Assembly (NCBI GenBank): GCA_040954595.2
Contig: CM082588.2
Coordinates: forward strand, 12,103,398-12,167,397
DNA: 64,000 nt
Origin: Balanoglossus misakiensis
Taxonomy: Eukaryota; Animalia; Hemichordata
Reading direction: 5' to 3'
In this document: piece after piece, positions 4,714-46,100 of the stretch
How positions within the stretch are numbered: the stretch's first letter is position 1
Layout: each line of letters starts with the position of its first letter
Program-made: the position numbers and the translations under genes
The notes under the pieces: model-generated
The model's database searches: none
What the model saw: the letters and a program-made list of their open reading frames with translations, nothing else
Told to the model about the DNA's origin: nothing

Positions 4714-5860
4714 GGGACCGTTCAGTTTTTACGGCCGGGGGGGGGGGGGGCGGCAAAATCCAGGGGGGGGGGTCACTTAAATTTTGAAGTCCACAAGGGG
4801 GGGTCATCTGGATTTTTTAAACGTTTATGGGGGGGGTCACATACTTTTGCCACCGAACTTTTGCTTTTGAGTCCACAAAATTGCAGTTTCGCACCCTTTA
4901 TTTTACAAAATTTTCTAATGTGGGAGGGGGACACCCACCCCCTTCATTCTCCGCCACATTTCATTTTTTGCTGGTTTGTCTAGTGTACCAGGGCAGAGTG
5001 CTTGCCACCCCAACCCCACCGATGATAATATTTAACAAAGTGAATACATAAAGGAGAATAATTGTTTAAACCATTTTGCATAACTGATAGTTTCGCGCTG
5101 CATCTTCTATATACTAGAAGTTTTATAAATGATGTCATGACAAGATGACGCCAAATCTTCTAACTTTGAGTGGAGTGGCAAAAAGTAAAATCCTCCCAAA
5201 CATTGAGATAATTTGCTTTTAAGTTCATTAAAATGCAACTTTGCGCTACATATTTTACAAAATTTTCTTATGTGGGAGGGGGACACTCCCTCCCAAACCC
5301 ACCCCTCCGTTCAAGGCCACATTGCATTTATTCACTGGTTTGTCTAGTGTACCAGGGAAGACTTCTTGCCACCCCACCTCGATGCTTACTTTGAGTGGAG
5401 TGGCAAAATTAAAATTTGTCCTCCCTAACATTGAGTTAATTTGCTTTTGAGTTCATTAAATTGCAACTTTGAGCACCGTATTTTACAAAATTTTCTTACG
5501 CCCACCCCCACCACTTTTCTTGTTTTACCGATTCTAGCAACTATTGTATTGACTTGTCATTTTCTTTTGTTCATAGATTTCTTTATTGCAACGATATACT
5601 ATTATATACTTCAATAATACTTTAAGAAATATATAATTGAGGTGTGAGGAGCCTCATTCCCTTTATTGCATACAGTGTACATAGGATCAGAACGGCGAAT
5701 ATTTTGGGCGTGGGGGGGGGGGTTCATCATATTTTTGGGTCTGTCAAAGGGGGGTCATCATTTTTTGGTCCTGGGTGAAGGGGGGGGGGGTTGGCCTGAT
5801 TTTGAGAACCGATGACTCAAACTTGCCACCCCCCCCCTGCCGTAAAAACTGAACGGTCCC
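4714..5860. mobile_element. PIF/Harbinger-type (Tourist-like) MITE
   Basis: Perfect 22-bp TIR GGGACCGTTCAGTTTTTACGGC (4714-4735 / 5839-5860) flanked by TAA on both sides (4711-4713, 5861-5863). Internal G/C runs and diverged internal repeats. No coding capacity. Confidence 0.88.
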
Positions 5861-20800: not shown

Positions 20801-22431
20801 GGCTTTGTTTTGGAATAACGAATACTCTACAAGATTTAAGTAGAACAGTCACAGAATGAAAACAAATATGGAAAGAGTTATGCTGGAATGTTGTAAGGGA
20901 TAGATTAATATTGCAAAAAATTTAATTTCTTACACCATAAATGGAATTCAAAGAAAGGTCACGTAACAGGATATGTATAGTTTCAAGCCTTTGTTTTGGA
21001 ATAACGAATTCTCTACAAGATTTAAGTGGAACAGTCACAGAATGAAAACAAATATGGAAAGAGTTATGTCGGAATGTTGTAAGGGATAGATTTATATTGC
21101 AAATAATTTAATTTCTTACAGCATAAATGGAATTCAAAGAATGGTCACGTAACAGGATATGTATAGTTTCAAGCCTTTGTTTTGGAATAACGAATTCTCT
21201 ACAAGATTTAAGTGGAACAGTCACAGAATGAAAACAAATATGGAAAGAGTTATGTCGGAATGTTGTAAGGGATAGATTAATATTGCAAATAATTTAATTT
21301 CTTACATCATAAATGGAATTCAAAGAATGGTCACATAACGGGCCATGTTTTACTAAAAAGACTTATGTATAGTTTCAAGGCTTTGTTTTGGAATAACGAA
21401 TTCTCTCCAAGATTTAAGTTGAACAGTTACAGAATGAAAACAAATATGGAAAGAGTTATGCTGGAATGTTGTAAGGGATAGATTAATATTGCAAATAATT
21501 TAATTTCTTACATCATAAAATGAATTCAAAGAATGGTCACATAACAGGATATTTTTTACTAAAAAGACTTATGTATAGTTTCAAGGCTTTGTTTGGAATA
21601 ACGAATTCTCTCCAAGATTTAAGTTGAACAGTTACAGAATGAAAACAAATATTCAAATAGTTATGCTGGAATGTTGTAAGGGATAGTTTAATATTGCAAA
21701 TAATTTAATTTCTTACATCATAAATGAAATTCAAAGAATGGTCAAATAACGGGCCATGTTTTACTAAAAAGACTTAATATGTATAGTTGAAGGCTTTGTT
21801 TTGGAATAACGAATTCTCTACAAGATTTAAGTGGAACAGTCACAGAATGAAAACAAATATGGAAAGAGTTATGTCGGAATGTTGTAAGGGATAGATTAAT
21901 ATTGCAAATAATTTAATTTCTTACAGCATAAAATGAATTCAAACAAACGTCACGTAATAGGATATGTATAGTTTCAAGGCTTTGTTTTGGAATAACGAAT
22001 ACTCTACAAGATTTAAGTAGAACAATCACAGAATGAAAACAAATATGGAAAGAGTTATGCTGGAATGTTGTAAGGGATAGATTAATATTGCAAAAAATTT
22101 AATTTCTTACACCATAAATGGAATTCAAAGAAAGGTCACGTAACAGGATATGTATAGTTTCAAGCCTTTGTTTTGGAATAACGAATTCTCTACAAGATTT
22201 AAGTGGAACAGTCACAGAATGAAAACAAATATGGAAAGAGTTATGTCGGAATGTTGTAAGGGATAGATTAATATTGCAAATAATTTAATTTCTTACATCA
22301 TAAATGGAATTCAAAGAATGGTCACATAACGGGCCATGTTTTACTAAAAAGACTTATGTATAGTTTCAAGGCTTTGTTTTGGAATAACGAATTCTCTCCA
22401 AGATTTAAGTTGAACAGTTACAGAATGAAAA
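5861..22431. repeat. Satellite DNA array, left arm; 186-bp and ~206-bp monomers
   Basis: Uninterrupted head-to-tail copies of ...GAATTCTCTACAAGATTTAAGTGGAACAGTCACAGAATGAAAACAAATATGGAAAGAG... The 62-aa periodicity of the minus-strand ORFs equals 186 bp. The long form carries an extra TTTACTAAAAAGACTTATGT (e.g. spacing 6334 to 6540 = 206). Confidence 0.98.
10455..14842. repeat. Near-perfect 2166-bp tandem duplication (about 11 monomers) within the satellite
   Basis: Identical ORF translations offset by exactly 2166 (10514/12680, 11001/13167, 11285/13451). Private variants recur at the same offset. Confidence 0.9.
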
Positions 22432-23644
22432 TTAAAGCTGCAAGCAGCGTTGGCGGGGCACAAGCGGTTCCCATGGTGACCAGCAAATGCCACGGCTGTA
22501 TCTGCTGGGGATACCAATATATGGGAAAGTAGGTCAAAGGTCACCTGAGGTCACCCAAAATTTGGGCAAAAAAATTGGACCCCATAATAGTCTAGATCCA
22601 ACAAAAAACCAGACCCCTAGCCCTATTGGTTCGCCTGCAATTAGGTATGCACATAATTAATGAAGTCTTGTGTAAGACTCCATTATGTGCTCAATCCCCA
22701 TAAAAGCCAGGGCTCTAACTGCTCTGGATGCTGAGATATGGGAAAGTAGATCAAAGGTCACCCAAGGTCACCCAAAATTAGGGCATAAAATTTTGACCCC
22801 AGAGTGGGCCATGTCCAACCAATACCAGACCTCTAGCCCTATTGGGTAGCATGGAATTAGATATGCAGAAAAATGATGTTTCAGAAATAGGTCAAAGGTC
22901 ATTGTCAAAATTACCAAAATATTTGTGTCATGTCCTGGCAGCATTGGTACCCATGTCCACAAAATTCATGACTTTGGTGCTTTGACAAGAGGAGGTATGG
23001 GGAATATGCATATATAATTAGTTGTTTTAAAACTGGGTCAAAGGTCATGTGAAAATTGCCCCGAAAAATTGTGACAACTTCCGGTCATATGATGACTCAT
23101 ATCCCAAAAAAGTATTTCCATGCTGTCAACATTTTGGCTACAAAACGGAATTATCACTTTTCAATGGTTTTCCGAAAATCCAACATGGCCGCCATAATGA
23201 TCGACCAATCACAGTGCGCTTCGCAAACTTGATAGACATAGGTTAGGTGACCACATATCCCAAATCCCGAGACTCGGTAACCGCTGGTTCTGGAGAAGAA
23301 GATTTTTAAAGTTTTAAGTAGTTTTTCAGAAAAACAATTGTAGCAAAAAAACTTTATGTATGACGTCATGATTTTAATGGGGTAAAATGATGGACATAAG
23401 GTAGGCTACCTGCACACCAAATTTGAACTCGATCGGCCCAGTGGTTTTAGAGAAGGACTCATTTAACGATTTTCAGGAAATCCAATATGGCCGCCAGGTC
23501 ACGTGACTAATTAAATATTCACGAGCCACTGCACGTCTACTCATTGGCCCCTACCACCCTACCAAGTTTCAGCCCCCTAGGTGCTGCGGTTTTCCAGATC
23601 TACCTGGCCGAATTTCTCGGAAGAAGAAGAATAATAAAGAAGAA
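22432..23644 (-). mobile_element. HINE-like element 1 body (outermost); cap at 34105-34160
   Basis: Variant subTIR GGGGCACAAGCG (22455-22466) is matched only by the last hairpin (CGCTTGTGCCCC, 34147-34158). Body ends in a GAA/TAA microsatellite. Confidence 0.85.
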
Positions 23645-25320
23645 TTAAAGCTGCAAGCAGCATTGTCCGGGCCCAAGCTCTATTATCTGATCAGATTATT
23701 AGATATGCACATAATTAATGAGTAGAAACATAATGCTGTGTTTTATCCCATGAAATATCAAGGTTATATCTATGTTTGGTGCTGATATAATGTTAAGTAG
23801 GTCAAAGGTCCCCTGAGGTCACCCAAAATTTGGGCAGAAAAATTTGACCCATAGTGGTCCATGTCCAACAAAAACCAGACCTCTAGCCCTTTTGGTTAGC
23901 CCGGAATTAGGTATGCACATAAATAATGAGTTAAGCAGGTGTCACAGGTGACCCAAAACTTTGGCTTTTAATTATGGCCCCATACCTCCAAACGCCAAGG
24001 CTGTATCTGCTGTGGATGTCGAGATATGCAAAAGTAGGTCAAAGGTCACCAGAGGTCACCCAACATTTGGGCAAATTTGTTTGACCCAATACTGGTCCAT
24101 GTCCAACAGAAACCAAACCTCTAGGTCTATTGGTTCATCTGGAATTAGGTATGTGCATATTTAATGAGGTCAGCAGAGGTCACAGGTGACCCTAAACTGT
24201 GGCTTTTCATTATGGCCCCATATATCCAAATGCCAAGGCTGTACCTGCTTTGGATACCAAGATATGCAAAAGTAGGTCAAAGGTTATCCGTGGTCACCCA
24301 ACATTTGGGTAAAATATTTTGACCCCGTACTGATCCATGTCCAAAAAAACCCAAACCTCCAGGTCTATTGGTTCATCATGAATTAGGTATGCGCATATTT
24401 AATGCGGTCAGCAGAGGTCAAAGGGGTCATGAAAAGTAGCAAAATTGTTTGATCACATACAAATCCACATACATCAAAAACCAAACTTGTAGCCCTATTG
24501 GTTAGCCTGGAATTAGATATGCAGAAAAATGATGTGTCAAAAGTAGGTCAAAGGTCTTTGCCAAAATTACCAAAATATTTATAGCTTATTCTTGTCATAT
24601 GATGATTCATATCCATAAAAAGAATTTCTGTGCTATCAATTTTTAGGCTAGAAAGGGAATTTTTACTTTTTAATCGTTTTTCACAAAATCCAATATGGCC
24701 GCCATAATCTTCGACTAATCACATTCTTCTTCGCAAACTTGATAGACATCTGTTTAATGACCACACACACCAAATCTTGTGACTCGGTTATCGCCGGTTC
24801 TCGAGAAGAAGATTTTTGAAATTTTACTAGGGTTTTTCGAAAATCCAATATGGCCGCCATAATCTTCGACCAATCACAATGATCTTCGCAAACTTGATAG
24901 ACATCAGTTAGTTGACCACATACCCCAAACCCCGTGTCTCGGTTATCACCGGTTCTAGAGAAGAAGATTTTTGAAATTTAAGCCAGATTTCAGAAAAAAA
25001 ATTGTAGCAAAAAAACTGCAACATTGACAGCATAATTTCCAATTACAAAAATGTTTGACAGAAGGTAGTCTACCTGCACGCCAAATTTGAAGTCGATCTG
25101 ACTTGTAGTTTCTGAGATCTGAGATTTGCATTTTTTCAGAAAATCCAAGATGGCCGCCAGGTCATGTGACTAATTAAAAATTCATGGGTTCAATGCACGA
25201 CTACTCATTGACCTTGACCACTGTAGCAAGTTTGAGAACTGTACCTGCAGTGGTGTCTGAGATCTAGAGCGACAAAGAAATGACAGAAGAATATAGAAAG
25301 AAGAAAGAAAGAAAGACAGA
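23645..25320 (-). mobile_element. HINE-like element 2 body; inferred cap 34051-34104
   Basis: TTAAAGCTGCAAGCAGCATTGTCCGGGCCCAAGC start, three ~237-bp subrepeats, ends GAAAGAAAGACAGA. Confidence 0.8.
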
Positions 25321-26751
25321 TTAAAGCTGCAAGCAGCATTGTCCGGGCCCAAGCTCTATTAACTGATCTGATTATTAGATATGCACGTAATTAATGAGTA
25401 GAAACATAATGCTGTGTTTTATCCCATGAAATATCAAGATTATATCTATGTTTAGTGCTGATATAGTGTTAAGTAGGTCGAAGGTCACCCAGAGGTCACC
25501 CACAATTTGGGCAGAAAATTTTGACCCATAGTGGTCCATGTCCAACAAAAAACAGACCTCTACCCCTTTTGGTTAGCCCGGAATTAGGTATGCATATAAA
25601 TAATGAGTTAAGCAGGTGTCACAGGTGACCCAAAACTTTGGCTTTTCATTATGGCCCCATACCTCCAAACGCCAAGGCTGTATCTGCTGTGGATGCTGAG
25701 ATTTGCGAAAGTACGTCAAAGGTCACCAGAGGTCACCCAACATTTGGGTAAAAAATTTTGACCCCATACTTGTCCTGTCCAACAAAAACAAAACCTCTAG
25801 GTCTATTGGTTCGCCTGTAATTAGCTATGCACATAATTAATTAGGTCAGCAGGGGTCAAAGGGGTCATGAAAAGTAGCAAAATATTTTGATCACACACTA
25901 ATCCACATACAACAAAGACCAAACTTATAGCCCTATTGGTTAGCCTGGAATTAGATATGCAGAAAAATGATGCGTCAAAAGTAGGTCAAAGGTCATTGCC
26001 AAAATTACCAAAATATTTAAAGCACATTGTAGTCATATGATGATTCATATCCATAAAAAGAATTTCTGTGCTATCAATTTTTAGGCTAGAAAGGGAATTT
26101 TTACTTTTTAATCGTTTTTCACAAAATCCAATATGGCCGCCATAATCTTCGACCAATCACAATGCTCTTTGCAAACTTGATAGACATCTGTTTAATGACC
26201 ACACACACCAAATCTTGTGACTCGCTTATCGCCGGTTCTTGAGAAGAAGATTTTTGAAATTTTACTAGGGTTTTTCGAAAATCCAATATGGCCGACAAAA
26301 TCTTCGACCAATCACAATGATCTTCGCAAACTTGATAGACATCAGTTAGGTGACCACATACACCAAACCCTGTGTCTCGGTTATCACCGGTTCTGGAGAA
26401 GAAGATTTTTGAAATTTAAGCCAGATTTCAGAAAAAAAATTGTAGCAAAAAACTGCAACTTTGTCAGCATAATTTCCAATTACAAAAATGATGGACAGAG
26501 GGTAGTCTACCAGCATGCCAAATTTGAAGTCGATCTGACTTGTAGTTTCTGAGATCTGAGATTTGCATTTTTTCAGAAAATCCAAGATGGCCGCCAGGTC
26601 ACGTGACTAATTAAAAATTCAAGGGTTCAATGCACGACTACTCATTGACCTTGACCACTGTAGCAAGTTTCAGAAGTGTACCTGCAGCGGTGTCTGAGAT
26701 CTCGTGGGTCAAAGAATTGACACAAGAATAAAGAAAGAAAGAAAGAAAGTA
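25321..26751 (-). mobile_element. HINE-like element 3 body; inferred cap 33998-34050
   Basis: Same terminus, two ~237-bp subrepeats, ends GAAAGAAAGTA. Confidence 0.8.
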
Positions 26752-27862
26752 TTAAAGCTGCAAGCAGCATTGTCCGGGCCCAAGCTCTATTATCTGATCT
26801 GATGCTGATATAGTGTTAAGTAGGTCAAAGGTCACCCGAGGTCACCCAACATTTGGGCAAAATATTTTGACCCCATACTGGTCCATGTATAACAAAAACA
26901 AAACCTCTAGGTCTATTGGTTCATCTGTAATTAGCTATGCACATAATTAATGAGGTAAGCAGAGGTCAAAGGGGTCATGAAAAGTAGCAAAAATTTTTGA
27001 TCACATACAAATCCACATACATCAAAAACCAAACGTCTAGCCCTATTGGTTAGCCTGGAATTAGATATGCAGAAAAAAGATGCGTCAAAAGTAGGTCAAA
27101 GGTCATTGCCAAAATTACCAAAATATTTATAGCTTATTCTTGCCATATGATGATTCATATCCATAAAAAGAATTTCTGTGCTATCAATTTTTAGGCTAGA
27201 AAAGGAATTTTTACTTTTAAATCGTTTTTCACAAAATCCAATATGGCCGCCATAATCTTCGACCAATCACATTCCCCTTCGCAAACTTGATAGACATCTG
27301 TTTAATGACCAAACACACCAAATCTTGTGACTCGGTTATCGCCCGTTCTGGAGAAGAAGATTTTTGGAGTTTAACTATTGTTTTTCGAAAATCCAATATG
27401 GCCGCCATAATCTTCGACCAATCACAATGATCTTCGCAAACTTGATAGACATCAGTTAGGTGACCACATACCCCAAACCGCGTGACTTAGTTATCACCGG
27501 TTCTGGAGAAGAAGATTTTTGAAATTTAAGCCAGATTTCAGAAAAAAAATTGTAGCAAAAAAACTGCAACATTTACAGCAAAATATCCAATTACAAAAAT
27601 GATGGGTAGAAGGAAGACTACCTGCACACCAAATTTGAAGTCGATCTGACTTGTAGTTTCTGAGATCTGAGATTTGCATTTTTTCAGAAAATCCAATATG
27701 GCCGCCAGGTCACGTGACTAATTAAAAATTCAAGGGTTCAATGCACAACTACTTATTGACCTTGACCACTGTAGCAAGTTTCAGAAGTGTACCTGCAGCG
27801 GTGTCTGAGATCTAGAGCGACAAAGAATTGACAGAAGAATAAAGAAAGAAAGAAAGAAAGAA
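26752..27862 (-). mobile_element. HINE-like element 4 body (internally shortened); inferred cap 33937-33997
   Basis: Same terminus, deletion near 26800, one subrepeat, ends in (GAAA)n. Confidence 0.8.
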
Positions 27863-29294
27863 TTAAAGCTGCAAGCAGCATTGTCCGGGCCCAAGCTCTA
27901 TTATCTGATCTGATTATTAGTTATGCACATTATGAATGAGTAGAAACATAATGCTGTGTTTTATCCCATGAAATATCAAGGTTATATCTAGGTTTGGTGT
28001 TGACATAGTGTTAAGTAGGTCAAAGGTCACCCAGAGGTCACCCAAAATTTGGGCAGAATATTTTGACCCATAGTGGTCTATGTCCAACAAAAACCAGATC
28101 TCTAGCCCTTTTGGTTAGCCCGGAATTAGGTATGCACATAAATAATGAGTTAAGCAGGTGTCACAGGTGACCCAAAACTTTGGCTTTTCATTATGGCCCT
28201 ATACCTCCAAACGCCAAGGCTGTATCTGCTGTGGATGTCAAGATATGCCAAAGTAGGTCAAAGGTCATCCGAGGTCACCCAACATTTGGGCAAAATATTT
28301 TGACCCCATACTGGTCCATGTATAACCAAAACAAAATCTCTAGGTCTATTGGTTCATCTGTAATTAGGTATGTGCATATTTAATGAGGTCAGCAGAGGTC
28401 AAAGGGGTCATGAAAAGTAGCAACATTTTTTGATTACATACAAATCCACATACATCAAAAACCAAACTTATAGCCCTATTGATTAGCCTGGAATTAGATA
28501 TGCAGAAAATTGATGCGTCAAAAATAGGTCAAAGGTCAATGCCAAAATTACCAAAATATTTATAGCTTATTCTTGTTATATGATGATTCATATCCATAAA
28601 AAGAATTTCTGCGCTATCAATTTTTAGGCTAGAAAGGGAATTTTTACTTTTTAATCGTTTTTCACAAAATCCAATATGGCCGCCATAATCTTCGACCAAT
28701 CACATTCCTCTTCGCAAACTTGATAGACATCTGTTGAATGACCACACACACCAAATCTTGTGACTCGGTTATCGCCGGTTCTCGAGAAGAAGATTTTTGA
28801 AATTTTACTAGGGTTTTTCGAAAATCCAATATGGCCGCCATAATCTTCGACCAGTCACAGTGATCTTCGCAAACTTGATAGACATCAGTTAGGTGACCAC
28901 ATACCCCAAACCCCGTGTCTCGGTTATCACCGGTTCTGGAGAAGAAGATTTTTGAAATTTAAGCCAGATTTCAGAAAAAAAATTGTAGCAAAAAAACTGC
29001 AACATTGACAGCATAATTTCCAATTACAAAAATGTTTGACAGAAGGTAGTCTACCTGCACGCCAAATTTAAAGTTGATCTGACTTGTAGTTTCTGAGATC
29101 TGAGATTTGCATTTTTTCAGAAAATCCAAGATGGCCGCCAGGTCATGTGACTAATTAAAAATTCATGGGTTCAATGCACGACTACTCATTGACCTTGACC
29201 ACTGTAGCAAGTTTGAGAACTGTACCTGCAGTGGTGTCTGAGATCTAGAGCGACAAAGAAATGACAGAAGAATAAAGAAAGAAGAAAGAAAGAA
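27863..29294 (-). mobile_element. HINE-like element 5 body; inferred cap 33876-33936
   Basis: Same terminus, two subrepeats, distal part nearly identical to element 2. Confidence 0.8.
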
Positions 29295-30715
29295 TTAAAG
29301 CTGCGAGCAGCATTGTCGGGCCCAAGCGCTGATCTTGAATTATATATGCACAGTATGAATGAGAAGAAACAGAATTTTCTATCGGATGTATTATCTCATG
29401 ACATATCAAGGACGTGTGTATTTTTGCTGCTTAAATAGGGTGAAGTAGGTCAAAGGTCACCTGAGGTCACCCAACATTTGGGCAATTTTTTTTGACCCAT
29501 ACTGGTCCATGTCCAACAAAAACCAAAACTCTAGCTCTATTGGTTCGCCTGTAATTAGGTATGTGCATATTTAATGAGGTCAGCAGGTGTCACAGGTGAC
29601 CCAAAAATGTGGCTTTACATTTTGGTCCCATCCTACCAAATGCCATGGCTGTATCTGCTCTGGATGCTGAGATATGCGAAAGTAGGTCAAAGGTCACCAG
29701 AGGTCACGCAACATTTGGGCAAAACATTTTGACCCCATACTGGTCTGTGTCCAACAAAAACCAAACCTCTAGCTCTATTGGTTCGCCTGTAATTAGCTAT
29801 GCACATAATTAATGAGGTCAGCAGAGGTCAAAGGGGTCATGAAAAGTAGCAAAATATTTTGATCACACACTAATCCACATTCATCAAAAACCAAACGTCT
29901 AGCCCTATAGGTTAGCCTGGAATTAGATATGCAGAAATAATAACGCGTGATAAGTAGGTCAAAGGTCATGTGAAAAATCGCCAAAAAATTGTAACATATT
30001 TTAGTCACATGACGATTGATATCCATAAAAAGAATTTGTATGCTATCAATTTTTAGACTAGAAAAAGGAATTTCAATTTTTCACTGCTTTTTACAAAATC
30101 CAATATGGCCGCCATAATCTTCAACCAATCACAATGCTCTTTGCAAACTTGATAGACATCAGTGTAGTGACCATACTCCCCGAATCTTGCGACTCAGTCA
30201 TCGCCCGTTCTGGAGAAGAAGATTTTTGGAGTTTAACAATGGTTTTTCTAAAATCCAATATGGCCGCCATAATCTTCGACCAATCACAATGATCTTCGCA
30301 AACTTGATAGACATCAGTTAGGTGACCACATACCCCAAACCCCGTGTCTCGGTTATCACTGGTTCTGGAGAAGAAGATTTTTGAAATTTAAGCCAGATTT
30401 CAGAAAAAAAATTGTAGCAAAAAAACTGCAACATTGACAGCAAAATTTCCAATTACAAAAATGATGGGTAGAAGGTAGTCTACCTGCATGCCAAATTTGA
30501 AGTCGATCTGACTTGTAGTTTCTGAGATCTGAGATTTGAATTTTTTCAGAAAATCCAATATGGCCGCCAGGTCACGTGACTAATTAATTATTCACAAGTC
30601 ACTGCACATCTACTCATTGACCTTGACCACTGTATCAAGTTTGAGAAGTGTACCTGCAGTAGTTTCAGAGATCTCGTTGGCCGAAGAAATTGACACAAGA
30701 AAAAAGAAAGAAAGA
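29295..30715 (-). mobile_element. HINE-like element 6 body (diverged subfamily); inferred cap 33822-33875
   Basis: Starts TTAAAGCTGCGAGCAGCATTGTCGGGCCCAAGCGC with a diverged first 150 bp, ends in (GAAA)n. Confidence 0.8.
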
Positions 30716-32145
30716 TTAAAGCTGCAAGCAGCATTGTCCGGGCCCAAGCTCTATTATCTGATCTGATTATAAGATATGCACATAATTAATGAGTAGAAAC
30801 ATAATGCTGTGTTTTATCCCATGAAATATCAAGGTTATATCTGTTTGGTGCTGATATAGTGTTAAGTAGGTCAAAGGTCACCCAGGGGTCACCCATAATT
30901 TTGGCAGAACATTTTGACCCATAGTGGTCCATGTCCAACAAAAGCCAGACCTCTAGCCCTTTTGGTTAGCCCGGAATTAGGTATGCACATAAATAATGAG
31001 TAAAGCAGGTGTCACAGGTGACCCAAAACTTTGGCTTTTAATTATGGCCCTATGCCTCCAAACGCCAAGGCTGTATCTGCTGTGGATGTCGAGATATGCA
31101 AAAGTAGGTCAAAGGTCACCCGAGGTCACCCAACATTCGGGCAAAATATTTTGACCCCATACTTGTCCATGTCCAACAAAAACCAAACCTCTAGCTCTCT
31201 TGGTTCGCCCGTAATTAGCTATGCACATAATTAATGAGGTCAGCTGAGGTCAAAGGGGTCATGGAAAGTAGCAAAATATTTTGATCACACACTAATCCAC
31301 ATGCATCAAAAACCAAATGTCTAGCCCTTTTGGTTAGCCTGTAATTAGATATGCAGAAAAATGATGCATCAAAAGTAGGTCAAAGGTCATTGCCAAAATT
31401 ACCAAAATATTTATAGCTTATTCTTGTCATATGATGAGTCATATCCATAAAAAGAATTTCTGTGCTATCAATATTTGGGCTAGAAAGGGAATTTTTACTT
31501 TTTAATCGTTTTTCACAAAATCCAATATGGCCGCCATAATCTTCGACCAATCACATTCCTCTTCGCAAACTTGATAGACATCTGTTTAATGACCACACAC
31601 ACCAAATCTTGTGACTCAGTTATCGCCGGTTCTTGAGAAGAAGATTTTTGAAATTTTACTAGGGTTTTTCGAAAATCCAATATGGCCGCCTTAATCTTCG
31701 ACCAATCACAATGATCTTCGCAAACTTGATAGACCTCAGTTTGGTGACCACATACCCCAAACCGCGTGACTCGGTTATCGCCGGTTCTGGAGAAGAAGAT
31801 TTTTGAAATTTTGACCAGATTTCAGAAAAACAACTGTAGCAAAAAATCTGCAACATTGACAGCAAAATATCCAATTACAAAAATGATGGGCAGAAGGTAC
31901 ACTACCAGCACACCAAATCTGAAGTAAATCTGACTTGTAGTTTCTGAGATCTGAGATTTGCATTTTTTCAGAAAATCCAATATGGCCGCCATGTCACGTG
32001 ACTAATTAAAAATTCAAGAGTTCAATGCACGACTACCCATTGACCTTGACCACTGTAGCAAGTTTGAGAAGTGTACCTGCAGCGGTGTCTGAGATCTAGA
32101 GCGACAAAGAATTGACACAAGAATAAAGAAAGAAGAAAGAAAGAA
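30716..32145 (-). mobile_element. HINE-like element 7 body; inferred cap 33769-33821
   Basis: Same terminus as elements 2-5, two subrepeats, ends in (GAAA)n. Confidence 0.8.
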
Positions 32146-33768
32146 ATATAGCTGCAAGCAGCGATGACGGGCCCAAGCTTAAGCCGAAGGTCAAAGGTCA
32201 TAAGAGGTCACCCGAAATTTTGGCAAGAAATTTTGACCCCCATACTGGTCCGTGTCCCACAAGAACAAAATCTCTAGCCCTATTGGTTCGCCTACAATTA
32301 GGTATGCGCATAATTAATGAGATAAAGTGTAAGGCTCCATCAGGAGTTCCATCCCTCCAAATGCCAAGGCTGTATCTGCTGTGGATGCCGAGATATGGTA
32401 AAGTAGGTCAAAGGTCACCTGAGGTCACCCAAAATTTGGGCAAAAAATTTTGACCCCATACTGGTCCATGGTCAGCATAAATCAAACCTCTAGCCCTATT
32501 GCTTAGCCTGGAATTAGGTATGCACATAATTAATGAGATAAGCAGGTGTCACAGGTGACCCCAATTTTGGCTTTTCAATTTTAGTCCCAACCCTCCAAAC
32601 GCCAAGTCTGTACCTGCTCTGGATGCGGAGATATAGGAAAGTAGGTCAAAGGTCACCTGAGGTCACCCAAAATTTGGGCAAGAAATTTTGACCCTATACT
32701 GGTCCATGTCCCACAAGAACGAAACCTCTAGCCCTCTTAGTTAACCCAGAATTAGGTATGCACATAATTAATGAGTTAAGCAGGTGTCACAGGTGACCCC
32801 CAGTGTTGCCTTTTCAATTTTAGTCCCAACCCTCCAAACGCCAAGTCTGTACCTGCTCTGGATGCCAAGATATAGGAAAGTAGGTCAAAGGTCACCTGAG
32901 GTCACCCAAAATTTGGGCAAGAAATTTTGACCCTATACTGGTCCATGTCCCACAAGAACGAAACCTCTAGCCCTCTTATTTAGCCCAGAATTAGGTATGC
33001 ACATAATTAATGAGTTAAGCAGGTGTTACAGGTGAGCCTAAAATTGTGCCTTTTATTTTGGTGCCATTGTGCTCACCGACCAATAGACAGTCACTGTACA
33101 GGACTATTGCACAGACCAGAATTCCACAATAAGACATGGACATAGCTTATCCATAGAGGTATAAGTAAAGGTATTATTTAATAAAAAAATTAATATAAAA
33201 AAATCGGTCGATTTTTCATACTATTTTTTTTCGCTTAAAATTATTGACAAATGCTAGGCTAGCTGCATACCAAAGTTGAAGAAGATTGGCCTGACAGATT
33301 TTGAGATATGTATGCATATTTATCCAAAATAATATGTGGTCATGGCTTTACTATGGAAAGTATAGGCCCATGGCTTGGTAAAAAATATGAAAAATAATAC
33401 TTAAAAATCTTCTTCTCAAAATTGGAATGGCCAATGGCCTTGACATTTGGCATGTAGTACACTGACCACATGGTCCGCAAAAGTTGCTAAAAGAATTTTG
33501 ATATCTCCATTCATATGCAAATAAGGCCGATTTCAAAATTTTGCCCATATATGGTCATCAGGTCACATGACTAATTAAACATTCACAAGGGTACTGCACT
33601 AGCTCTCATTGGCCTGCACCATTGTGCCAAGTTTGAAATTGGTAGGTTTAGCAGTTTTCCAGATCTACCTCGCCAAAGAAAACGACAGAAGAAGAAAAAG
33701 AAGAAGAAGTAGAAGAAAAACCAGGATAATACCAATAGGGCCCAAGCGCTGCATGCGCTTGGGCCCTA
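32146..33768 (-). mobile_element. HINE-like element 8 (innermost, uninterrupted, distinct subfamily)
   Basis: Starts ATATAGCTGCAAGCAGCGATGACGGGCCCAAGC. About four ~238-bp subrepeats, a unique 33060-33540 segment, an intact (GAA)n tract ~33686-33720, and its own hairpin 33736-33768 directly attached. Confidence 0.85.
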
Positions 33769-34160
33769 AAAACCCCAACGAAACCAATAGGGCCCAAGCG
33801 CTGGCTTGCGCTTGGGCCCTAAAAAACCCCAACGAAACCAATAGGGCCCAAGCGCTTGCGTGCGCTTGGGCCCTAAAGACAGAAAAACCCCAACGAAACC
33901 AATAGGGCCCAAGCGCTGGTATGCGCTTGGGCCCTAAAGACAGAAAAACCCCAACGAAACCAATAGGGCCCAAGCGCTGGTATGCGCTTGGGCCCTAAAA
34001 ATTCCAACGAAACCAATACGGGCCCAAGCCTGGCTTGGCTTGGGCCCGTAAAAAACCCCAACGAAACCAATAGGGCCCAAGCGCTGGTATGCGCTTGGGC
34101 CCTAAATATTCCAACAATAACAATGGGGGCACAAGCCGCCTGAGGGCGCTTGTGCCCCCA
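33736..34160. repeat. Stack of eight terminal hairpin caps (52-61 bp period)
   Basis: Hairpins at 33736-33768, 33788-33821, 33842-33875, 33903-33936, 33964-33997, 34017-34050, 34071-34104 and 34124-34160. Consensus TAGGGCCCAAGCGC-loop-GCGCTTGGGCCCTA with AAAACCCCAACGAAACCAA linkers. Confidence 0.95.
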
Positions 34161-37100
34161 ACAAATATGGAAAGAGTTATGCTGGAATGTTGTAAGGGAT
34201 AGATTAATATTGCAAATAATTTAATTTCTTACATCATAAAATGAATTCAAAGAATGGTCACATAACAGGATATGTTTTACTAAAAAGACTTATGTATAGT
34301 TTCAAGGCTTTGTTTGGAATAACGAATTCTCTCCAAGATTTAAGTTGAACAGTTACAGAATGAAAACAAATATTCAAATAGTTATGCTGGAATGTTGTAA
34401 GGGATAGTTTAATATTGCAAATAATTTAATTTCTTACATCATAAATGAAATTCAAAGAATGGTCAAATAACGGGCCATGTTTTACTAAAAAGACTTAATA
34501 TGTATAGTTGAAGGCTTTGTTTTGGAATAACGAATTCTCTACAAGATTTAAGTGGAACAGTCACAGAATGAAAACAAATATGGAAAGAGTTATGTCGGAA
34601 TGTTGTAAGGGATAGATTAATATTGCAAATAATTTAATTTCTTACAGCATAAATGGAATTCAAAGAATGGTCACATAACGGGCCATGTTTTACTAAAAAG
34701 ACTTATGTATAGTTTCAAGGCTTTGTTTTGGAATAACGAATTCTCTCCAAGATTTAAGTTGAACAGTTACAGAATGAAAACAAATATGGAAAGAGTTATG
34801 CTGGAATGTTGTAAGGGATAGATTAATATTGCAAATAATTTAATTTCTTACATCATAAATGGAATTCAAAGAATGGTCACATAACGGGCCATGTTTTACT
34901 AAAAAGACTTATGTATAGTTTCAAGGCTTTGTTTTGGAATAACGAATTCTCTCCAAGATTTAAGTTGAACAGTTACAGAATGAAAACAAATATTCAAATA
35001 GTTATGCTGGAATGTTGTAAGGGATAGTTTAATATTGCAAATAATTTAATTTCTTACATCATAAATGAAATTCAAAGAATGGTCAAATAACGGGCCATGT
35101 TTTACTAAAAAGACTTAATATGTATAGTTTGAAGGCTTTGTTTTGGAATAACGAATTCTCTACAAGATTTAAGTGGAACAGTCACAGAATGAAAACAAAT
35201 ATGGAAAGAGTTATGCCGGAATGTTGTAAGGAATAGATTAAAATTGCAAATAATTTAATTTCTTACATCATAAATGGAATTCAAAGAAACGTCACGTAAC
35301 AGGATATGTATAGGTTCAAGAATTTGTGTTGAAATACCAAATTCTCTACAAGATTTAAGTGGAACAGTTACAGAATGAAAACAAATATTCAAATAGTTAT
35401 GCTGGAATGTTGTAAGGGATAGTTTAATATTGCAAATAATTTAATTTCTTACATCATAAATGAAATTCAAAGAATGGTCAAATAACGGGCCATGTTTTAC
35501 TAAAAAGACTTAATATGTATAGTTGAAGGCTTTGTTTTGGAATAACGAATTCTCTACAAGATTTAAGTGGAACAGTCACAGAATGAAAACAAATATGGAA
35601 AGCGTTATGCCGGAATGTTGTAAGGGATAGATAATTATTGCAAATAATTTAATTTCTTACATCATAAATGGAATTCAAAGAATGGTCACATAACGGGCCA
35701 TGTTTTACAAAAAGACTTATGTATAGTTTCAAGGCTTTGTTTTGGAATAACGAATTCTCTACAAGATTTAAGTGGAACAGTCACAGAATGAAAACAAATA
35801 TGGAAAGAGTTATGCCGGAATGTTGTAAGGAATAGATTAAAATTGCAAATAATTTAATTTCTTACATCATAAATGGAATTCAAAGAATGGTCACATAACG
35901 GGCCATGTTTTACAAAAAGACTTATGTATAGTTTCAAGGCTTTGTTTTGGAATAACGAATTCTCTACAAGATTTAAGTGGAACAGTCACAGAATGAAAAC
36001 AAATATGGAAAGAGTTATGCTGAAATGTTGTAAGGGATAGATTAATATTGCAAATAATTTAATTTCTTACATCATAAATGGAATTCAAAGAATGGTCACA
36101 TAACGGGCCATGTTTTACTAAAAAGACTTATGTATAGTTTCAAGGCTTTGTTTGGAATAACGAATTCTCTCCAAGATTTAAGTTGAACAGTTACAGAATG
36201 AAAACAAATATTCAAATAGTTATGCTGGAATGTTGTAAGGGATAGATTAATATTGCAAATAATTTAATTTCTTACATCATAAATGGAATTCAAAGAAACG
36301 TCACGTAACAGGATATGTATAGTTTCAAGGCTTTATTTTGGAATAACGAATTCTCTACAAGATTTAAGTGGAACAGTCACAAAATGAAAACAAATATTCA
36401 AATAGTTATGCTGGAATGTTGTAAATGATAGTTTAATATTGCAAATAATTTAATTTCTTACATCATAAATGAAATTCAAAGAATGGTCACATAACGGGCC
36501 ATGTTTTACCAAAAAGACTTATGTATAGTTTCAAGGTTTTGTTTTGGAATAACGAATTCTCTACAAGATTTAAGTGGAATAGTCACAGAATGAAAACAAA
36601 TATGGAAAGAGTTATGCTGGAATGTTGTAAGGGATAGATTAATATTGCAAATAATTTAATTTCTTACATTATAAAATGAATTCAAAGAATGGTCACATAA
36701 CAGGATATATTTTACTAAAAAGACTTATGTTATAGTTTCAAGGCTTTGTTTTGGAATAACGAATTCTCTACAAGATTTAAGTGGAACAGTCACAGAATGA
36801 AAACAAATATGGAAAGAGTTATGCCGGAATGTTGTAAGGAATAGATTAATATTGCAAATAATTTAACTTCTTACATCATAAATGGAATTCAAAGAAAGGT
36901 CACGTAACAGGATATGTATAGTTTCAAGCCTTTGTTTTGGAGTAACGAATTCTCTACAAGATTTAAGTGGAACAGTCACAGAATGAAAACAAATATGGAA
37001 AGAGTTATGCTGAAATGTTGTAAGGGATAGATTAATATTGCATAAAATTTTTATTTCTTACATCATAAATGGAATTCAAAGAATGGTCACATAACTGGAT

Positions 37101-40100
37101 ATGTTTTACTAAAAAGACTTATGTATAGGTTCAAGAATTTGTGTTGAAATACCAAATTCTCTACAAGATTTAAGTGGAACAGTCACAGAATGAAAACAAA
37201 TATGGAAAGAGATATGTCAGAATGTTGTAAGGGATAGATTAATATTGCAAATAATTTAATTTCTTACATCATAAATGGAATTCAAAGAATGGTCACATAA
37301 CGGGCCATGTTTTACCAAAAAGACTTATGTATAGTTTCAAGGTTTTGTTTTGGAATAACGAATTCTCTACAAGATTTAAGTGGAATAGTCACAGAATGAA
37401 AACAAATATGGAAATAGTTATGCTGAAATGTTGTAAGGGATAGTTTAATATTGCAAATAATTTAATTTCTTACATCATAAATGAAATTCAAAGAATGGTC
37501 AAATAACAAGCCATGTTTTACTAAAAAGACTTAATATGTATAGTTTGAAGGCTTTGTTTTGGAATAACGAATTCTCTACAAGATTTAAGTGGAACAGTCA
37601 CAGAATGAAAACAAATATGGAAAGCGTTATGCTGGAATGTTGTAAGGGATAGATTAATATTGCAAATAATTTAATTTCTTACATAATAAAATGAATTCAA
37701 AGAATGGTCACATAACAGGATATGTTTTACTAAAAAGACTTATGTTATAGTTTCAAGGCTTTGTTTTGGAATAACGAATTCTCTACAAGATTTAAGTGGA
37801 ACAGTCACAGAATGAAAACAAATATGGAAAGAGTTATGCCGGAATGTTGTAAGGAATAGATTAAAGTTGCAAATAATTTAATTTCTTACATCATAAATGG
37901 AATTCGAAGAAAGGTCACGTAACAGGATATGTATAGGTTCAAGAATTTGTGTTGAAATACCAAATTCTCTACAAGATTTAAGTGGAACAGTCACAGAATG
38001 AAAACAAATATGGAAAGAGTTATGTCGGAATGTTGTAAGGGATAGATTAATATTGCAAATAATTTAATTTCTTACATCATAAATGGAATTCAAAGAATGG
38101 TCACATAACGGGCCATGTTTTACTAAAAAGACTTATGTATAGTTTCAAGGCTTTGTTTGGAATAACGAATTCTCTCCAAGATTTAAGTTGAAGAGTTACA
38201 GAATGAAAACAAATATTCAAATAGTTATGCTGGAATGTTGTAAGGGATAGATTAATATTGCAAATAATTTAATTTCTTACATCATAAATGGAATTCAAAG
38301 AATGGTCACATAACGGGCCATGTTTTACTAAAAAGACTTGTGTATAGTTTCAAGGCTTTGTTTGGAATAACGAATTCTCTCCAAGATTTAAGTTGAACAG
38401 TTACAGAATGAAAACATATATTCAAATAGTTATGCTGGTATGTTGTAAGGGATAGTTTAATATTGCAAATAATTTAATTTCTTACATCATAAATGAAATT
38501 CAAAGAATGTTCACATAACGGGCCATGTTTTACTAAAAAGACTTAATATGTATAGTTTGAAGGCTTTGTTTTGGAATAACGAATTCTCTACAAGATTTAA
38601 GTGGAACAGTCACAGAATGAAAACAAATATGGAAAGCGTTATGCTGGAATGTTGTAAGGGATAGATTAATATTGCAAATAATTTAATTTCTTACATCATA
38701 AAATGAATTCAAAGAATGGTCACATAACAGGATATGTTTTACTAAAAAGACTTATGTTATAGTTTCAAGGCTTTGTTTTGGAATAACGAATTCTCTACAA
38801 GATTTAAGTGGAACAGTCACAGAATGAAAACAAATATGGAAAGAGTTATGCCGGAATGTTGTAAGGAATAGATTAAAGTTGCAAATAATTTAATTTCTTA
38901 CATCATAAATGGAATTCGAAGAAAGGTCACGTAACAGGATATGTATAGGTTCAAGAATTTGTGTTGAAATACCAAATTCTCTACAAGATTTAAGTGGAAC
39001 AGTCACAGAATGAAAACAAATATGGAAAGAGTTATGTCGGAATGTTGTAAGGGATAGATTAATATTGCAAATAATTTAATTTCTTACATCATAAATGGAA
39101 TTCAAAGAATGGTCACATAACGGGCCATGTTTTACTAAAAAGACTTATGTATAGTTTCAAGGCTTTGGTTGGAATAACGAATTCTCTCCAAGATTTAAGT
39201 TGAACAGTTAAAGAATGAAAACAAATATTCAAATAGTTATGCTGGAATGTTGTAAGGGATAGATTAATATTGCAAATAATTTAATTTCTTACATCATAAA
39301 TGGAATTCAAAGAATGGTCACATAACGGGCCATGTTTTACTAAAAAGACTTGTGTATAGTTTCAAGGCTTTGTTTGGAATAACGAATTCTCTCCAAGATT
39401 TAAGTTGAACAGTTACAGAATGAAAACATATATTCAAATAGTTATGCTGGAATGTTGTAAGGGATAGTTTAATATTGCAAATAATTTAATTTCTTACATC
39501 ATAAATGAAATTCAAAGAATGTTCACATAACGGGCCATGTTTTACTAAAAAGACTTATGTATAGTTTCAAGGTTTTGTTTTGGAATAACGAATTCTCTAC
39601 AAGATTTAAGTGGAATAGTCACAGAATGAAAACAAATATGGAAAGAGTTATGCTGGAATGTTGTAAGGGATAGATTAATATTGCAAATAATTTAATTTCT
39701 TACATCATAAAATGAATTCAAAGAATGTTCACATAACAGGATATATTTTACTAAAAAGACTTATGTTATAGTTTCAAGGCTTTGTTTTGGAATAACGAAT
39801 TCTCTACAAGATTTAAGTGGAACAGTCACAGAATGAAAACAAATATGGAAAGAGTTATGCCGGAATGTTGTAAGGAATAGATTAATATTGCAAATAATTT
39901 AATTTCTTACATCATAAATGGAATTCAAATAAAGGTCACGTAACAGGATATGTATAGTTTCAAGCCATTGTTTTGGAGTAACGAATTCTCTACAAGATTT
40001 AAGTGGAACAGTCACAGAATGAAAACAAATATGGAAAGAGTTATGCTGAAATGTTGTAAGGGATAGATTAATATTGCATAAAATTTTTATTTCTTACATC

Positions 40101-43100
40101 ATAAATGGAATTGAAAGAATGGTCACATAACTGGATATGTTTTACTAAAAAGACTTATGTATAGGTTCAAGAATTTGTGTTGAAATACCAAATTCTCTAC
40201 AAGATTTAAGTGGAACAGTCACAGAATGAAAACAAATATGGAAAGAGTTATGCCGGAATGTTGTAAGGAATAGATTAAAATTGCAAATAATTTAATTTCT
40301 TACATCATAAATGGAATTCAAAGAAACGTCACGTAACAGGATATGTATAGGTTCAAGAATTTGTGTTGAAATACCAAATTCTCTACAAGATTTATGTGGA
40401 ACAGTCAGAGAATGAAAACAAATATGGAAAGAGTTATGTCGGAATGTTGTAAGGGATAGATTAATATTGCAAATAATTTAATTTCTTACATCATAAATGG
40501 AATTCAAAGAATGGTCACATAACGGGCCATGTTTTACTAAAAAGACTTATGTATAGTTTCAAGGCTTTGTTTGGAATAACGAATTCTCTCCAAGATTTAA
40601 GTTGAACAGTTACAGAATGAAAACAAATATTCAAATAGTTATGCTGGAATGTTGTAAGGGATAGTTTAATATTGCAAATAATTTAATTTCTTACATCATA
40701 AATGGAATTCGAAGAATGTTCACATAACGGGCCATGTTTTACTAATAATACTTATGTATAGTTTCAAGGTTTTGTTTTGGAATAACGAATTCTCTACAAG
40801 ATTTAAGTGGAATAGTCACAGAATGAAAACAAATATGGAAAGAGTTATGCTGGAATGTTGTAAGGGATAGATCAATATTGCAAATCATTTAATTTCTTAC
40901 ATCATAAAATGAATTCAAAGAATGGTCACATAACAGGATATATTTTACTAAAAAGACTTATGTTATAGTTTCAAGGCTTTGTTTTGGAATAACGAATTCT
41001 CTACAAGATTTAACTGGAACAGTCACAGAATGAAAACAAATATGGAAAGAGTTATGCCGGAATGTTGTAAGGAATAGATTAATATTGCAAATAATTTAAT
41101 TTCTTACATCATAAATGGAATTCAAAGAAAGGTCACGTAGGATATGTATAGTTTCAAGCCATTGTTTTGGAGTAACGAATTCTCTACAAGATTTAAGTGG
41201 AACAGTCACAGAATGAAAACAAATATGAAAAGAGTTATGCTGAAATGTTGTAAGGGATAGATTAATATTGCATAAAATTTTTATTTCTTACATCATAAAT
41301 GGAATTCAAAGAATGGTCACATAACTGGATATGTTTTACTAAAAAGACTTATGTATAGGTTCAAGAATTTGTGTTGAAATACCAAATTCTCTACAAGATT
41401 TAAGTGGAACAGTTACAGAATGAAAACAAATATTCAAATAGTTATGCTGAAATGTTGTAAGGGATAGTTTAATATTGCAAATAATTTAATTTCTTACGTC
41501 ATAAATGAAATTCAAAGAATGGTCAAATAAGGGGCCATGTTTTACTAAAAAGACTTAATATGTATAGTTTGAAGGCTTTGTTTTGGAATAACGAATTCTC
41601 TACAAGATTTAAGTGGAACAGTCACAGTTTGAAAACAAATATGGAAAGCGTTATGCTGGAATGTTGTAAGGGATAGATTAATATTGCAAATAATTTAATT
41701 TCTTACATCATAAAATGAATTCAAAGAATGGTCACATAACAGGATATGTTTTACTAAAAAGACTTATGTTATAGTTTCAAGGCTTTGTTTTGGAATAACG
41801 AATTCTCTACAAGATTTAAGTGGAACAGTCACAGAATGAAAACAAATATGGAAAGAGTTATGCCGGAATGTTGTAAGGAATAGATTAATATTGCAAATAA
41901 TTTAATTTCTCACATCATAAATGAAATTCAAAGAATGGTCAAATAACGGGCCATGTTTTACTAAAAAGACTTATGTATAGTTTCAAGGCTTTGTTTGGAA
42001 TAACGAATTCTCTCCAAGATTTAAGTTGAACAGTTACAGAATGAAAACAAATATTCATATAGTTATGCTGGAATGTTGTAAGGGATAGTTTAATATTGCA
42101 AATAATTTAATTTCTTACATCATAAATGAAATTCAAAGAATGGTCACATAACGGGCCATGTTTTACTAAAAAGACTTATGTATAGTTTCAAGGTTTTGTT
42201 TTGGAATAACGAATTCTCTACAAGATTTAAGTGGAATAGTCACAGAATGAAAACAAATATGGACAGAGTTATGCTGGAATGTTGTAAGGGATAGATTAAT
42301 ATTGCAAATAATTTAATTTCTTACATCATAAAATGAATTCAAAGAATGGTCACATAACAGGATATGTTTTACTAAAGAGACTTATGTTATAGTTTCAAGG
42401 CTTTGTTTTGGAATAACGAATTCTCTACAAGATTTTAGTGGAACAGTCACAGAATGAAAATAAATATGGAAAGCGTTATGCTGGAATGTTGTAAGGGATA
42501 GATTAATATTGCAAATAATTTAATTTCTTACATCATAAAATGAATTCAAAGAATGGTCACATAACAGGATATGTTTTACTAAAAAGACTTATGTTATAGT
42601 TTCAAGGCTTTGTTTTGGAATAACGAATTCTCTACAAGATTTAAGTGGAACCGTCACAGAATGAAAACAAATATGGAAAGAGTTATGCCGGAATGTTGTA
42701 AGGAATAGATTAATATTGCAAATAATTTAATTTCTGACATCATAAATGGAATTCAAAGAATGGTCACGTAACAGGATATGTATAAGTTCAAGAATTTGTG
42801 TTGAAATACCAAATTCTCTACAAGATTTAAGTGGAACAGTCACAGAATGAAAACAAATATGGAAAGAGTTATGCTGAAATGTTGTAAGGGATAGATTAAT
42901 ATTGCAAATAATTTAATTTCTTACATCATAAATGGAATTCAAAGAATGGTCACATAACGGGCCATGTTTTACTAAAAAGACTTATGTATAGTTTCAAGGT
43001 TTTGTTTTGTAATAACGAATTCTCTACAAGATTTAAGTGGAATAGTCACAGAATGAAAACAAATATGGAAAGAGTTATGCTGGAATGTTGTAAGGGATAC

Positions 43101-46100
43101 ATTAATATTGCAAATAATTTAATTTCTTACATCATAAATTGAATTCAAAGAATGGTCACATAACAGGATATGTTTTACTAAAAAGACTTATGTTATAGTT
43201 TCAAGGCTTTGTTTTGGAATAACGAATTCTCTACAAGATTTAAGTGGAACAGTCACAGAATGAAAACAAATATGGAAAGAGTTATGCTAGAATGTTGTAA
43301 GAGAAAGTTTAATATTGCAAATAATTTAATTTCTTACATCATAAATGAAATTCAAAGAATGGTCACATAACGGGCCATGTTTTACTAAAAAGACTTATGT
43401 ATAGTTTCAAGGTTTTGTTTTGGAATAACGAATTCTCTACAAGATTTAAGTGGAATAGTCACAGAATGAAAACAAATATGGAAAGAGTTATGCTGGAATG
43501 TTGTAAGGGATAGATTAATATTGCAAATAATTTAATTTCTTACATCATAAAATGAATTCAAAGAATGGTCACATAACAGGATATGTTTTACTAAAAAGAC
43601 TTATGTTATAGTTTCAAGGCTTTGTTTTGGAATAACGAATTCTCTACAAGATTTAAGTGGAACAGTCACAGAATGAAAACAAATATGGAAAGAGTTATGC
43701 CGGAATGTTGTAAGGAATAGATTAATATTGCAAATAATTTAATTTCTTACATCATAAATGGAATTCAAAGAAAGGTCACGTAACAGGATATGTATAGTTT
43801 CAAGCCTTTGTTTTGGAGTAACGAATTCTCTACAAGATTTAAGTGGAACAGTCACAGAATGAAAACAAATATGGAAAGAGTTATGCTGAAATGTTGTAAG
43901 GGATAGATTAATATTGCATAAAATTTAATTTCTTACATCACAAATGGAATTCAAAGAATGGTCACATAACTGGATATGTTTTACTAAAAAGACTTATGTA
44001 TAAGTTCAAGAATTTGTGTTGAAATACCAAATTCTCTACAAGATTTAAGTGGAACAGTCACAGAATGAAAACAAATATGGAAAGAGATATGTCGGATTGT
44101 TGTAAGGGATAGATTAATATTGCAAATAATTTAATTTCTTACATCATAAATGGAATTCAAAGAATGCTCACATAACGGGCCATGTTTTACTAAAAAGACT
44201 TATGTATAGTTTCAAGGCTTTGTTTGGAATAACGAATTCTCTCCAAGATTTAAGTGGAACAGTCACAGAATGAAAACAAGTATGGAAAGAGTTATGCTGA
44301 AATGTTGTAAGGGATAGATTAATATTGCAAATAATTTAATTTCTTACATCATAAATGGAATTCAAAGAATGCTCACATAACGGGCCATGTTTTACTAAAA
44401 AGACTTATGTATAGTTTCAAGGCTTTGTTTGGAATAACGAATTCTCTCCAAGATTTAAGTTGAACATTTACAGAATGAAAACAAATATTCAAATAGTTAT
44501 GCTGGAATGTTGTAAGGGATAGTTTAATATTGCAAATAATTTAATTTCTTACATCATAAATGAAATTCAAAGAATGGTCAAATAACGGGCCATGTTTTAC
44601 TAAAAAGAGTTAATATGTATAGTTTGAAGGCTTTGTTTTGGAATAACGAATTCTCTACAAGATTTAAGTGGAACAGGCACAGAATGAAAACAAATATGGA
44701 AAGCTTTATGCCGGAATGTTGTAAGGGATAGATAATTATTGAAAATAATTTAATATCTTACATCATAAATGGAAACCAAAGAAGGGTCACATAACGGGCC
44801 ATGTTTTACAAAAAGACTTATGTATAGTTTCAAGGCTTTGTTTTGGAATAACGAATTCTCTACAAGATTTAAGTGGAATAGTCACAGAATGAAAACAAAT
44901 ATGGAAAGAGTTATGCTGGAATGTTGTAAGGGATGGATTAATATTGCAAATAATTTAATTTCTTACATCATAAATGGAATTCAAAGAAAGGTCACGTAAC
45001 AGGATATGTATAGTTACAAGCCTTTGTTTTGGAGTAACGAATTCTCTACAAGATTTAAGTGGAACAGTCACAGAATGAAAACAAATATGGAAAGAGTTAT
45101 GCTGAAATGTTGTAAGGGATAGATTAATATTGCATAAAATTTAATTTCTTACATCATAAATGGAATTCAAAGAATGGTCACGTAACTGGATATGTTTTAC
45201 TAAAAAGACTTACGTATAAGTTCAAGAATTTGTGTTGAAATACCAAATTCTCTACAAGATTTAAGTGGAACAGTCATAGAATGAAAACAAATATGGAAAG
45301 AGATATGTCGGATTGTTGTAAGGGATAGATTAATATTGCAAATAATTTAATTTCTTACATCATAAATGAAATTCAAAGAATGGTCACATAACGGGCCATG
45401 TTTTACTAAAAAGACTTATGTATAGTTTCAAGGCTTTGTTTTGGAATAACGAATTCTCTCCAAGATTTAAGTTGAACAGTTACAGAATGAAAACAAATAT
45501 TCAAATAGTTATGCTGAAATGTTGTAAGGGATAGTTTAATATTGCAAATAATTTAATTTCTTACATCATAAATGAAATTCAAAGAATGGTCAAATAACGG
45601 GCCATGTTTTACTAAAAAGACTTAATATGTATAATTTCAAGCCTTTGTTTTGGAGTAACGAATTCTCTACAAGATTTAAGTGGAACAGTCACAGAATGAA
45701 AACAAATATGGAAAGAGTTATGCTGGAATGTTGTAAGGGATAGATTAATATTGCATAAAATTTAATTTCTTACATCATAAATGGAATTCAAAGAATGGTC
45801 ACATAACGGGCCATGTTTTACTAAAAAGACTTATGTATAGTTTCAAGGCTTTGTTTGGAATAACGAATTCTCTCCAAGATTTAAGTTGAACAGTTACAGA
45901 ATGAAAACAAATATTCAAATAGTTATGCTGGAATGTTGTAAGGGATAGTTTAATATTGCAAATAATTTAATTTCTTACATCATAAATGATATTCAAAGAA
46001 TGGTCACATAACGGGCCATGTTTTACTAAAAAGACTTATGTATAGTTTCAAGGTTTTGTTTTGGAATAACGAATTCTCTACAAGATTTAAGTGGAATAGT

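Follow-up and report, generated by a model that had tools for sequence, protein, structure and literature searches.

The region 22432-34161 of the analysed window (64,000 nucleotides of Balanoglossus misakiensis DNA, contig CM082588.2) is probably a stack of eight non-coding Helentron-like elements of the HINE/DINE-1 type, grown by serial self-insertion near the 5' end of the newest copy. The eight related transposon copies lie on the minus strand, nested in a satellite array and each split 53-61 nt from one end. In order come eight bodies and then eight 5' hairpin caps, all in one orientation. Nearly all evidence on the nest comes from this window and concerns one locus. The features are as follows (coordinates of the window).

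5861..22431, no strand: host satellite array, left of the nest; 186/206-bp monomers
22432..23644, minus strand: body of the outermost element, 1; its subTIR belongs to a different family and its 3' end lies at 22432; sits in the satellite
23645..25320, minus strand: body of element 2; remnant motif kept on the body side; identical over 199 bp to the end of body 5
25321..26751, minus strand: body of element 3
26752..27862, minus strand: body of element 4; shorter, about 320 bp missing near the 3' end
27863..29294, minus strand: body of element 5
29295..30715, minus strand: body of element 6; most divergent among 2-7, 85-88% to the others
30716..32145, minus strand: body of element 7
32146..33769, minus strand: element 8, innermost and unsplit, with its own cap still in place; contains a 239-bp repeat in 2.9 copies; start ±1 nt
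33770..33822, minus strand: 5' hairpin cap assigned to element 7; 53 nt
33823..33876, minus strand: 5' hairpin cap assigned to element 6; 54 nt; could be swapped with cap 3
33877..33937, minus strand: 5' hairpin cap assigned to element 5; 61 nt; with remnant; identical to cap 4
33938..33998, minus strand: 5' hairpin cap assigned to element 4; 61 nt; with remnant
33999..34051, minus strand: 5' hairpin cap assigned to element 3; 53 nt; divergent, both arms changed, stem kept
34052..34105, minus strand: 5' hairpin cap assigned to element 2; 54 nt; without remnant
34106..34161, minus strand: 5' hairpin cap belonging to element 1; 56 nt; directly adjoined by the remainder of the split satellite monomer
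34162..64000, no strand: host satellite array, right of the nest

Eight occurrences of a conserved end motif, all on a single strand, open the bodies at 22432, 23645, 25321, 26752, 27863, 29295, 30716 and 32146; no reverse-strand copy of it was found. Body sizes range from 1.1 to 1.7 kb. The satellite array extends from about 5.9 kb to the end of the window and is broken once, by the nest. Excising 22432-34161 rebuilds a 206-bp satellite monomer exactly, without target duplication at the insertion site, and the rebuilt 20-nt empty site is seen 152 times within the window. The nested elements gave no BLAST match to the satellite or flanks at E<=1e-3.

Read on the minus strand, each element is ordered as 5' subTIR within a hairpin, T-rich microsatellite, internal tandem repeats, 3' subTIR and 3' stem. 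The subTIR is a 10-12 nt exact match between the 3' end of a body and its own cap in all eight elements; in five of them it falls 1 nt below the published range of 11-15 nt. All eight caps form 5' hairpin stems of at least 14 bp (-18.6 to -20.9 kcal/mol). The 3' stem, present in seven of eight elements, is weak (4 bp, 5 nt from the end, about -3 kcal/mol). A T-rich tract is visible at all body ends, and TRF identified internal repeats of 130-239 bp in 7/8 bodies. Insertion sites are T^T in seven of eight cases; the outermost is G^T with the same boundaries (T^T if moved by 1 nt). Two ORFs of at least 100 aa overlap the nest, both non-ATG, and an Rfam search of 22400-33700 returned no matches.

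The elements match the published anatomy of non-autonomous Helentrons (HLE2) of the HINE/DINE-1 type: subTIRs, a 5' inverted repeat, microsatellite plus tandem repeats, and T^T insertion without duplication. This layout is given in the parts drawn on here of PMC4067079, PMC2374699 and PMC7492417, and for HLE2 of PMC11417382. Shared with the elements of the first three sources, among them the oyster Cg_HINE (PMC7492417), are the 5' subTIR with adjoining inverted repeat, the neighbouring microsatellite, the central tandem repeats, the 3' subTIR, the T^T target and the lack of duplication; a small 3' palindrome and a non-coding character may be shared as well. The nest differs from those descriptions in its subTIR length (10-12 vs 11-15 nt), in a (TTTC)n rather than a GTCY tract, and in the 4-bp 3' stem; the DINE-1 stems reported in the passages used are 7-11 nt (PMC2374699) and the mite HINE palindromes 5-10 bp (PMC4067079). 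Fixed-position self-nesting is seen here and does not figure in the parts of the HINE/DINE-1 accounts drawn on (PMC4067079, PMC2374699, PMC7492417). Two other classes were considered and rejected. A cut-and-paste MITE would have terminal inverted repeats and a target site duplication; here the repeats are subterminal and asymmetric, and no duplication is present at the satellite site. A canonical Helitron (HLE1), defined in the part of PMC11417382 used here by 5' TC, 3' CTRR and insertion at A^T, does not fit the termini and sites of the nest.

All seven inner insertions are in the same strand, at T^T on the minus strand, with cuts 53, 54, 61, 61, 53, 54 and 56 nt from the 5' ends of the hosts. 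Each of these sites lies within or at the edge of a T-rich tract, and all cuts are at the cap-side edge. Every host offers 156-215 AA steps, of which 3-5 fall in the 53-61 window; uniform choice would give all seven with p ~1e-12, a value that is post hoc and model-dependent, the 53-61 window having been set after the fact. Older bodies retain 20-27 nt of tract, and no reuse of split sites (tracts on older bodies, A-runs between caps) was found in the nest. If split sites were equally good targets and growth proceeded from the outside in, always hitting the newest copy would have p=1/5040, likewise a post hoc and model-dependent figure.

The initial annotation had proposed that junction remnants and loop sequences independently confirm the pairing of bodies with caps in reverse order. 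Its quoted motifs are all present, with coordinates correct to within 1 nt. The remnant AGACAGA ends body 2 (25320) and is missing from the reverse-order cap at 34052-34105, while it opens caps 5 (33877-33937) and 4 (33938-33998), whose bodies lack it; both are seen directly. The loop TGGTAT is common to caps 2, 4 and 5. The quoted end motif is indeed shared by bodies 2, 4 and 5, but body 7, one base off (C for G), had been left out. Element 7 carries the remnant on neither side.

What these junctions say about pairing had been overstated: reverse-order pairing is supported, but neither the congruence check nor the remnant rule singles it out. Congruence was run as the correlation of body-end with cap distances over all 720 pairings of elements 2-7, not as trees. 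With the last 150 bp of the bodies, same-order pairing (r=0.785, p=0.083) exceeded nested pairing (r=0.262, p=0.175), and it did so at all four body lengths (at 30 bp, r 0.764 vs 0.565). By distance correlation, same-order pairing thus fits elements 2-7 at least as well, a result that the annotation itself had said would count against its claim. The better correlation arises because the order of types is nearly palindromic. For elements 1-7, nested pairing reached r 0.89 (p 0.025) against -0.27 for same-order, driven by element 1 alone; with all eight elements, same-order was ahead at 150 and 300 bp. The argument that the divergent bodies 3 and 6 go with divergent caps is uninformative, because reversing the order swaps 3 with 6 and 4 with 5, so that the pairing is symmetric in both orders. 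The remnant rule taken alone is passed by same-order pairing too.

The discriminating evidence is more local. The subTIR of body 1 has a 12-nt match to the last cap and 5-6 nt to the other seven. When elements 2 and 5 are rejoined in reverse order, they show one difference in the last 280 columns, microsatellite length included, despite cuts 7 nt apart; same-order rejoining adds three differences across those columns. When all 720 ways of pairing elements 2-7 are considered, body SNP and loop agree in 36, 12 of these also satisfy the remnant rule and four also conserve the A-run, the 12/720 and 4/720 being optimistic, as the loop, remnant and A-run characters were picked after inspection. For the A-run test, the start of element 8 has to be set at 32146, or else body 7 must remain free; if 32147 is chosen, 0/720 pass the strict version. 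Nested pairing is among the four, whose sole differences concern the identical caps 4/5 and the choice of 3 vs 6, whereas same-order pairing fails the loop and A-run tests. For 3 vs 6, subTIR lengths lean towards nested (23 vs 21 nt), a 1-nt hint. In an alignment-cost score, nested pairing ranks 32 of 720 and same-order 166 when the junction alone is used; with longer body sequence the nested/same-order ranks become 92/92, 122/160 and 180/138, and discrimination is lost. On this sequence evidence the reverse-order, nested pairing is supported, less neatly than first claimed. The junction finding itself is supporting evidence for the nested structure, not a new system.

The other part of the annotation's claim held up as well. 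The junctions are separate insertion events, not copies of one junction: in 21 pairwise comparisons no two of the seven match on both sides. With 200 bp compared per side, the best pair reached 89%/94%; for the two junctions whose caps are identical, the values were 95%/75%. The insertion point also shifts between events, the same target sequence having been cut at two steps 7 nt apart.

Bodies 2-7 are mutually 85-94% alike, and elements 1 and 8 are about 72-84% similar to the remainder. Bodies 2 and 5 are identical over their last 200 bp (199-bp exact match) and 10% apart in a middle window; in the first alignment window, bodies 4 and 7 show no differences. Bodies 2-7 (23645-32145) thus look mosaic, which suggests exchange of modules between subfamilies. 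Singleton differences in bodies 2-7 number 15, 17, 12, 16, 68 and 27, with no age gradient from outside to inside in either direction.

Taken together, the fixed same-strand sites point to a target that could renew itself, made up of hairpin plus T-rich tract. A rolling-circle transposase supplied in trans would prefer a site made of two parts, namely the 5' hairpin/subTIR of the resident copy and the T-rich tract next to it, and would probably recognise the same hairpin on donors. Each newcomer would insert at a T^T step lying 53-61 nt in from the 5' end of the preceding copy, splitting the site (tract on the body, hairpin on the cap) while supplying a fresh intact one. Only the innermost copy would then remain a target, so that bodies would accumulate to one side of it and the caps would line up in reverse order on the other. 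The preference would cross families, because element 2 entered element 1 and element 8 entered element 7.

The same nest could also have been built inside-out or partly elsewhere, with a composite (element plus passenger) transposing as a unit into intact family members repeatedly and finally into the satellite. This main rival is considered unlikely, even though it yields an identical final sequence, explains hits on intact sites only without a two-part rule, and sits well with the missing outside-to-inside age gradient. It requires read-through of up to seven internal 3' ends and the same positional preference at every step; moreover, the Fusarium model, as set out in the part of PMC5148889 used here, expects a stop at the first 3' end and several caps per body, where eight bodies and eight caps are found. 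Serial nesting might instead have taken place in a heterochromatic sink through attraction to T-rich or (TTTC)n tracts alone, the hairpin having no role. The position of every inner site in or at the edge of a T-rich tract agrees with this, as does the reported preference of HINEs for T-rich/TT sites (PMC4067079, PMC2374699 and PMC7492417, in the passages used), but the 20-27 nt of tract on older bodies was never hit again, the cuts are all at the cap-side edge, and no further family copy was found in the remaining 52 kb of AT-rich window. A role for the tract alone is judged quite unlikely.

Enlargement of a small nest by unequal exchange or tandem duplication, acting on bodies and caps separately, would make the pairing same-order or meaningless. 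The identical, adjacent caps 4 and 5, the 199 identical bp of bodies 2 and 5, the better same-order fit by distance and the apparently mosaic bodies could all be read in this way. Under duplication, however, the equality of eight bodies and eight caps would be a coincidence, adjacent bodies are only about 72-94% alike, no junction is duplicated, and same-order pairing fails the loop and A-run tests; the probability of this explanation is put very low. An assembly artefact within the satellite array is hardly credible. The setting is highly repetitive, and none of the contig pieces listed spans the stretch compared (30350-32200), but the eight bodies are all distinct and the junctions are base-exact complements. 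Two sequencing runs contain 0.67 and 0.55 of the sampled words; they are possibly from the source sample and so not independent.

Serial self-insertion into the newest copy has partial precedents, taken here from portions of the respective sources. In Fusarium oxysporum, FoHeli carries 5' ends of 31-85 nt repeated on one body, and self-insertion near the 5' end was proposed (PMC5148889); Xenopus HelenXT233 (HLE2) has two left termini (PMC11417382). The stacked short 5' ends of FoHeli resemble those found here (31-85 vs 53-61 nt; PMC5148889). The difference is that FoHeli and HelenXT233 have several 5' ends per body, self-insertion being inferred, whereas the nest keeps all bodies and 3' ends eight deep, and the proposed precursor state is visible (PMC5148889, PMC11417382). 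Nested Helitrons were invoked in Paramecium (PMC13085455), and PMC3630058 reports nesting for three DINE-1-like copies, of which two lie within fragments of a different element. MITE multimers and self-insertion in rice and maize, summarised in a review (PMC5172404), are similar in that members of a family insert into one another in independent events, but they are cut-and-paste elements with target duplications, and no fixed position or deep serial nests are described in the part of the review drawn on (PMC5172404).

A literature search found no eight-deep, fixed-position Helentron self-nest, which is weak evidence of absence as subscription papers and Repbase reports lie mostly outside its coverage. 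Nothing relevant was found in a search for self-targeting of the Zepp/DIRS-1 type. Zepp and DIRS-1 are self-targeting analogies and form no part of the argument.

So far, nothing more specific than 'TT in T-rich DNA' has been known about target choice in HLE2/Helentrons. A run of seven same-strand hits, one after another in a 9-nt window of a family member, implies a far stronger target rule, and the nest shows intact the precursor only hypothesised for Helitrons with multiple 5' ends. It is tentatively proposed, at somewhat less than even confidence, that Helentron transposases dock on the 5' hairpin of a resident element and integrate at a set distance of 53-61 nt inside that element, across subfamilies whose subTIRs differ. 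The hairpin and tract might thus form a single-use landing pad that is destroyed and renewed with each insertion. Such a system could be considered a self-targeting safe-harbour strategy, leaving a time-ordered record of active subfamilies, and might be the source of the multi-capped Helentrons in fungi and frogs. If general, nests of this kind would provide the order of subfamily activity and a defined substrate for target-choice assays.

Contigs of four sequencing runs were compared with 30350-32200. Two runs of one sample (organism A) gave 7981 and 3759 matching pieces, in keeping with a very abundant family, and organism B gave 48 pieces in each of two runs. None of the matches listed for 30350-32200 covered a body end, so no body-cap linkage is readable from them. 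Three runs with sampled-word shares of 0.16-0.26 were left out of the evidence. A metagenome scan for the hairpin pattern returned 111 loci, none similar beyond the 31-35-nt hairpin, and scans for the 3' end in genome-contig and viral-contig collections gave 0 matches each; none of these scans yielded a copy from the host.

Several further features were observed in the window, to the left of the satellite. At 1066-1192 lies a small foldback element with a 58-bp near-perfect inverted repeat and an 11-nt spacer. The stretch 2043-3676 has 76-bp inverted arms 1.5 kb apart with short repeats inside; a motif near 2148 presumably resembles a CTCF site. Another small DNA transposon is probably located at 3910-4457, with 25-bp inverted arms 498 nt apart. 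The element at 4714-5860 has 36-bp inverted ends and TAA at both flanks, abuts the start of the satellite array, and looks like a PIF/Harbinger-type MITE; its left end recurs as a partial copy beginning near 2556. The satellite itself (5861-64000) consists of intermixed 186- and 205-207-bp monomers with a strong G-over-C skew (~0.25), and signs of higher-order repetition are visible in its left part.
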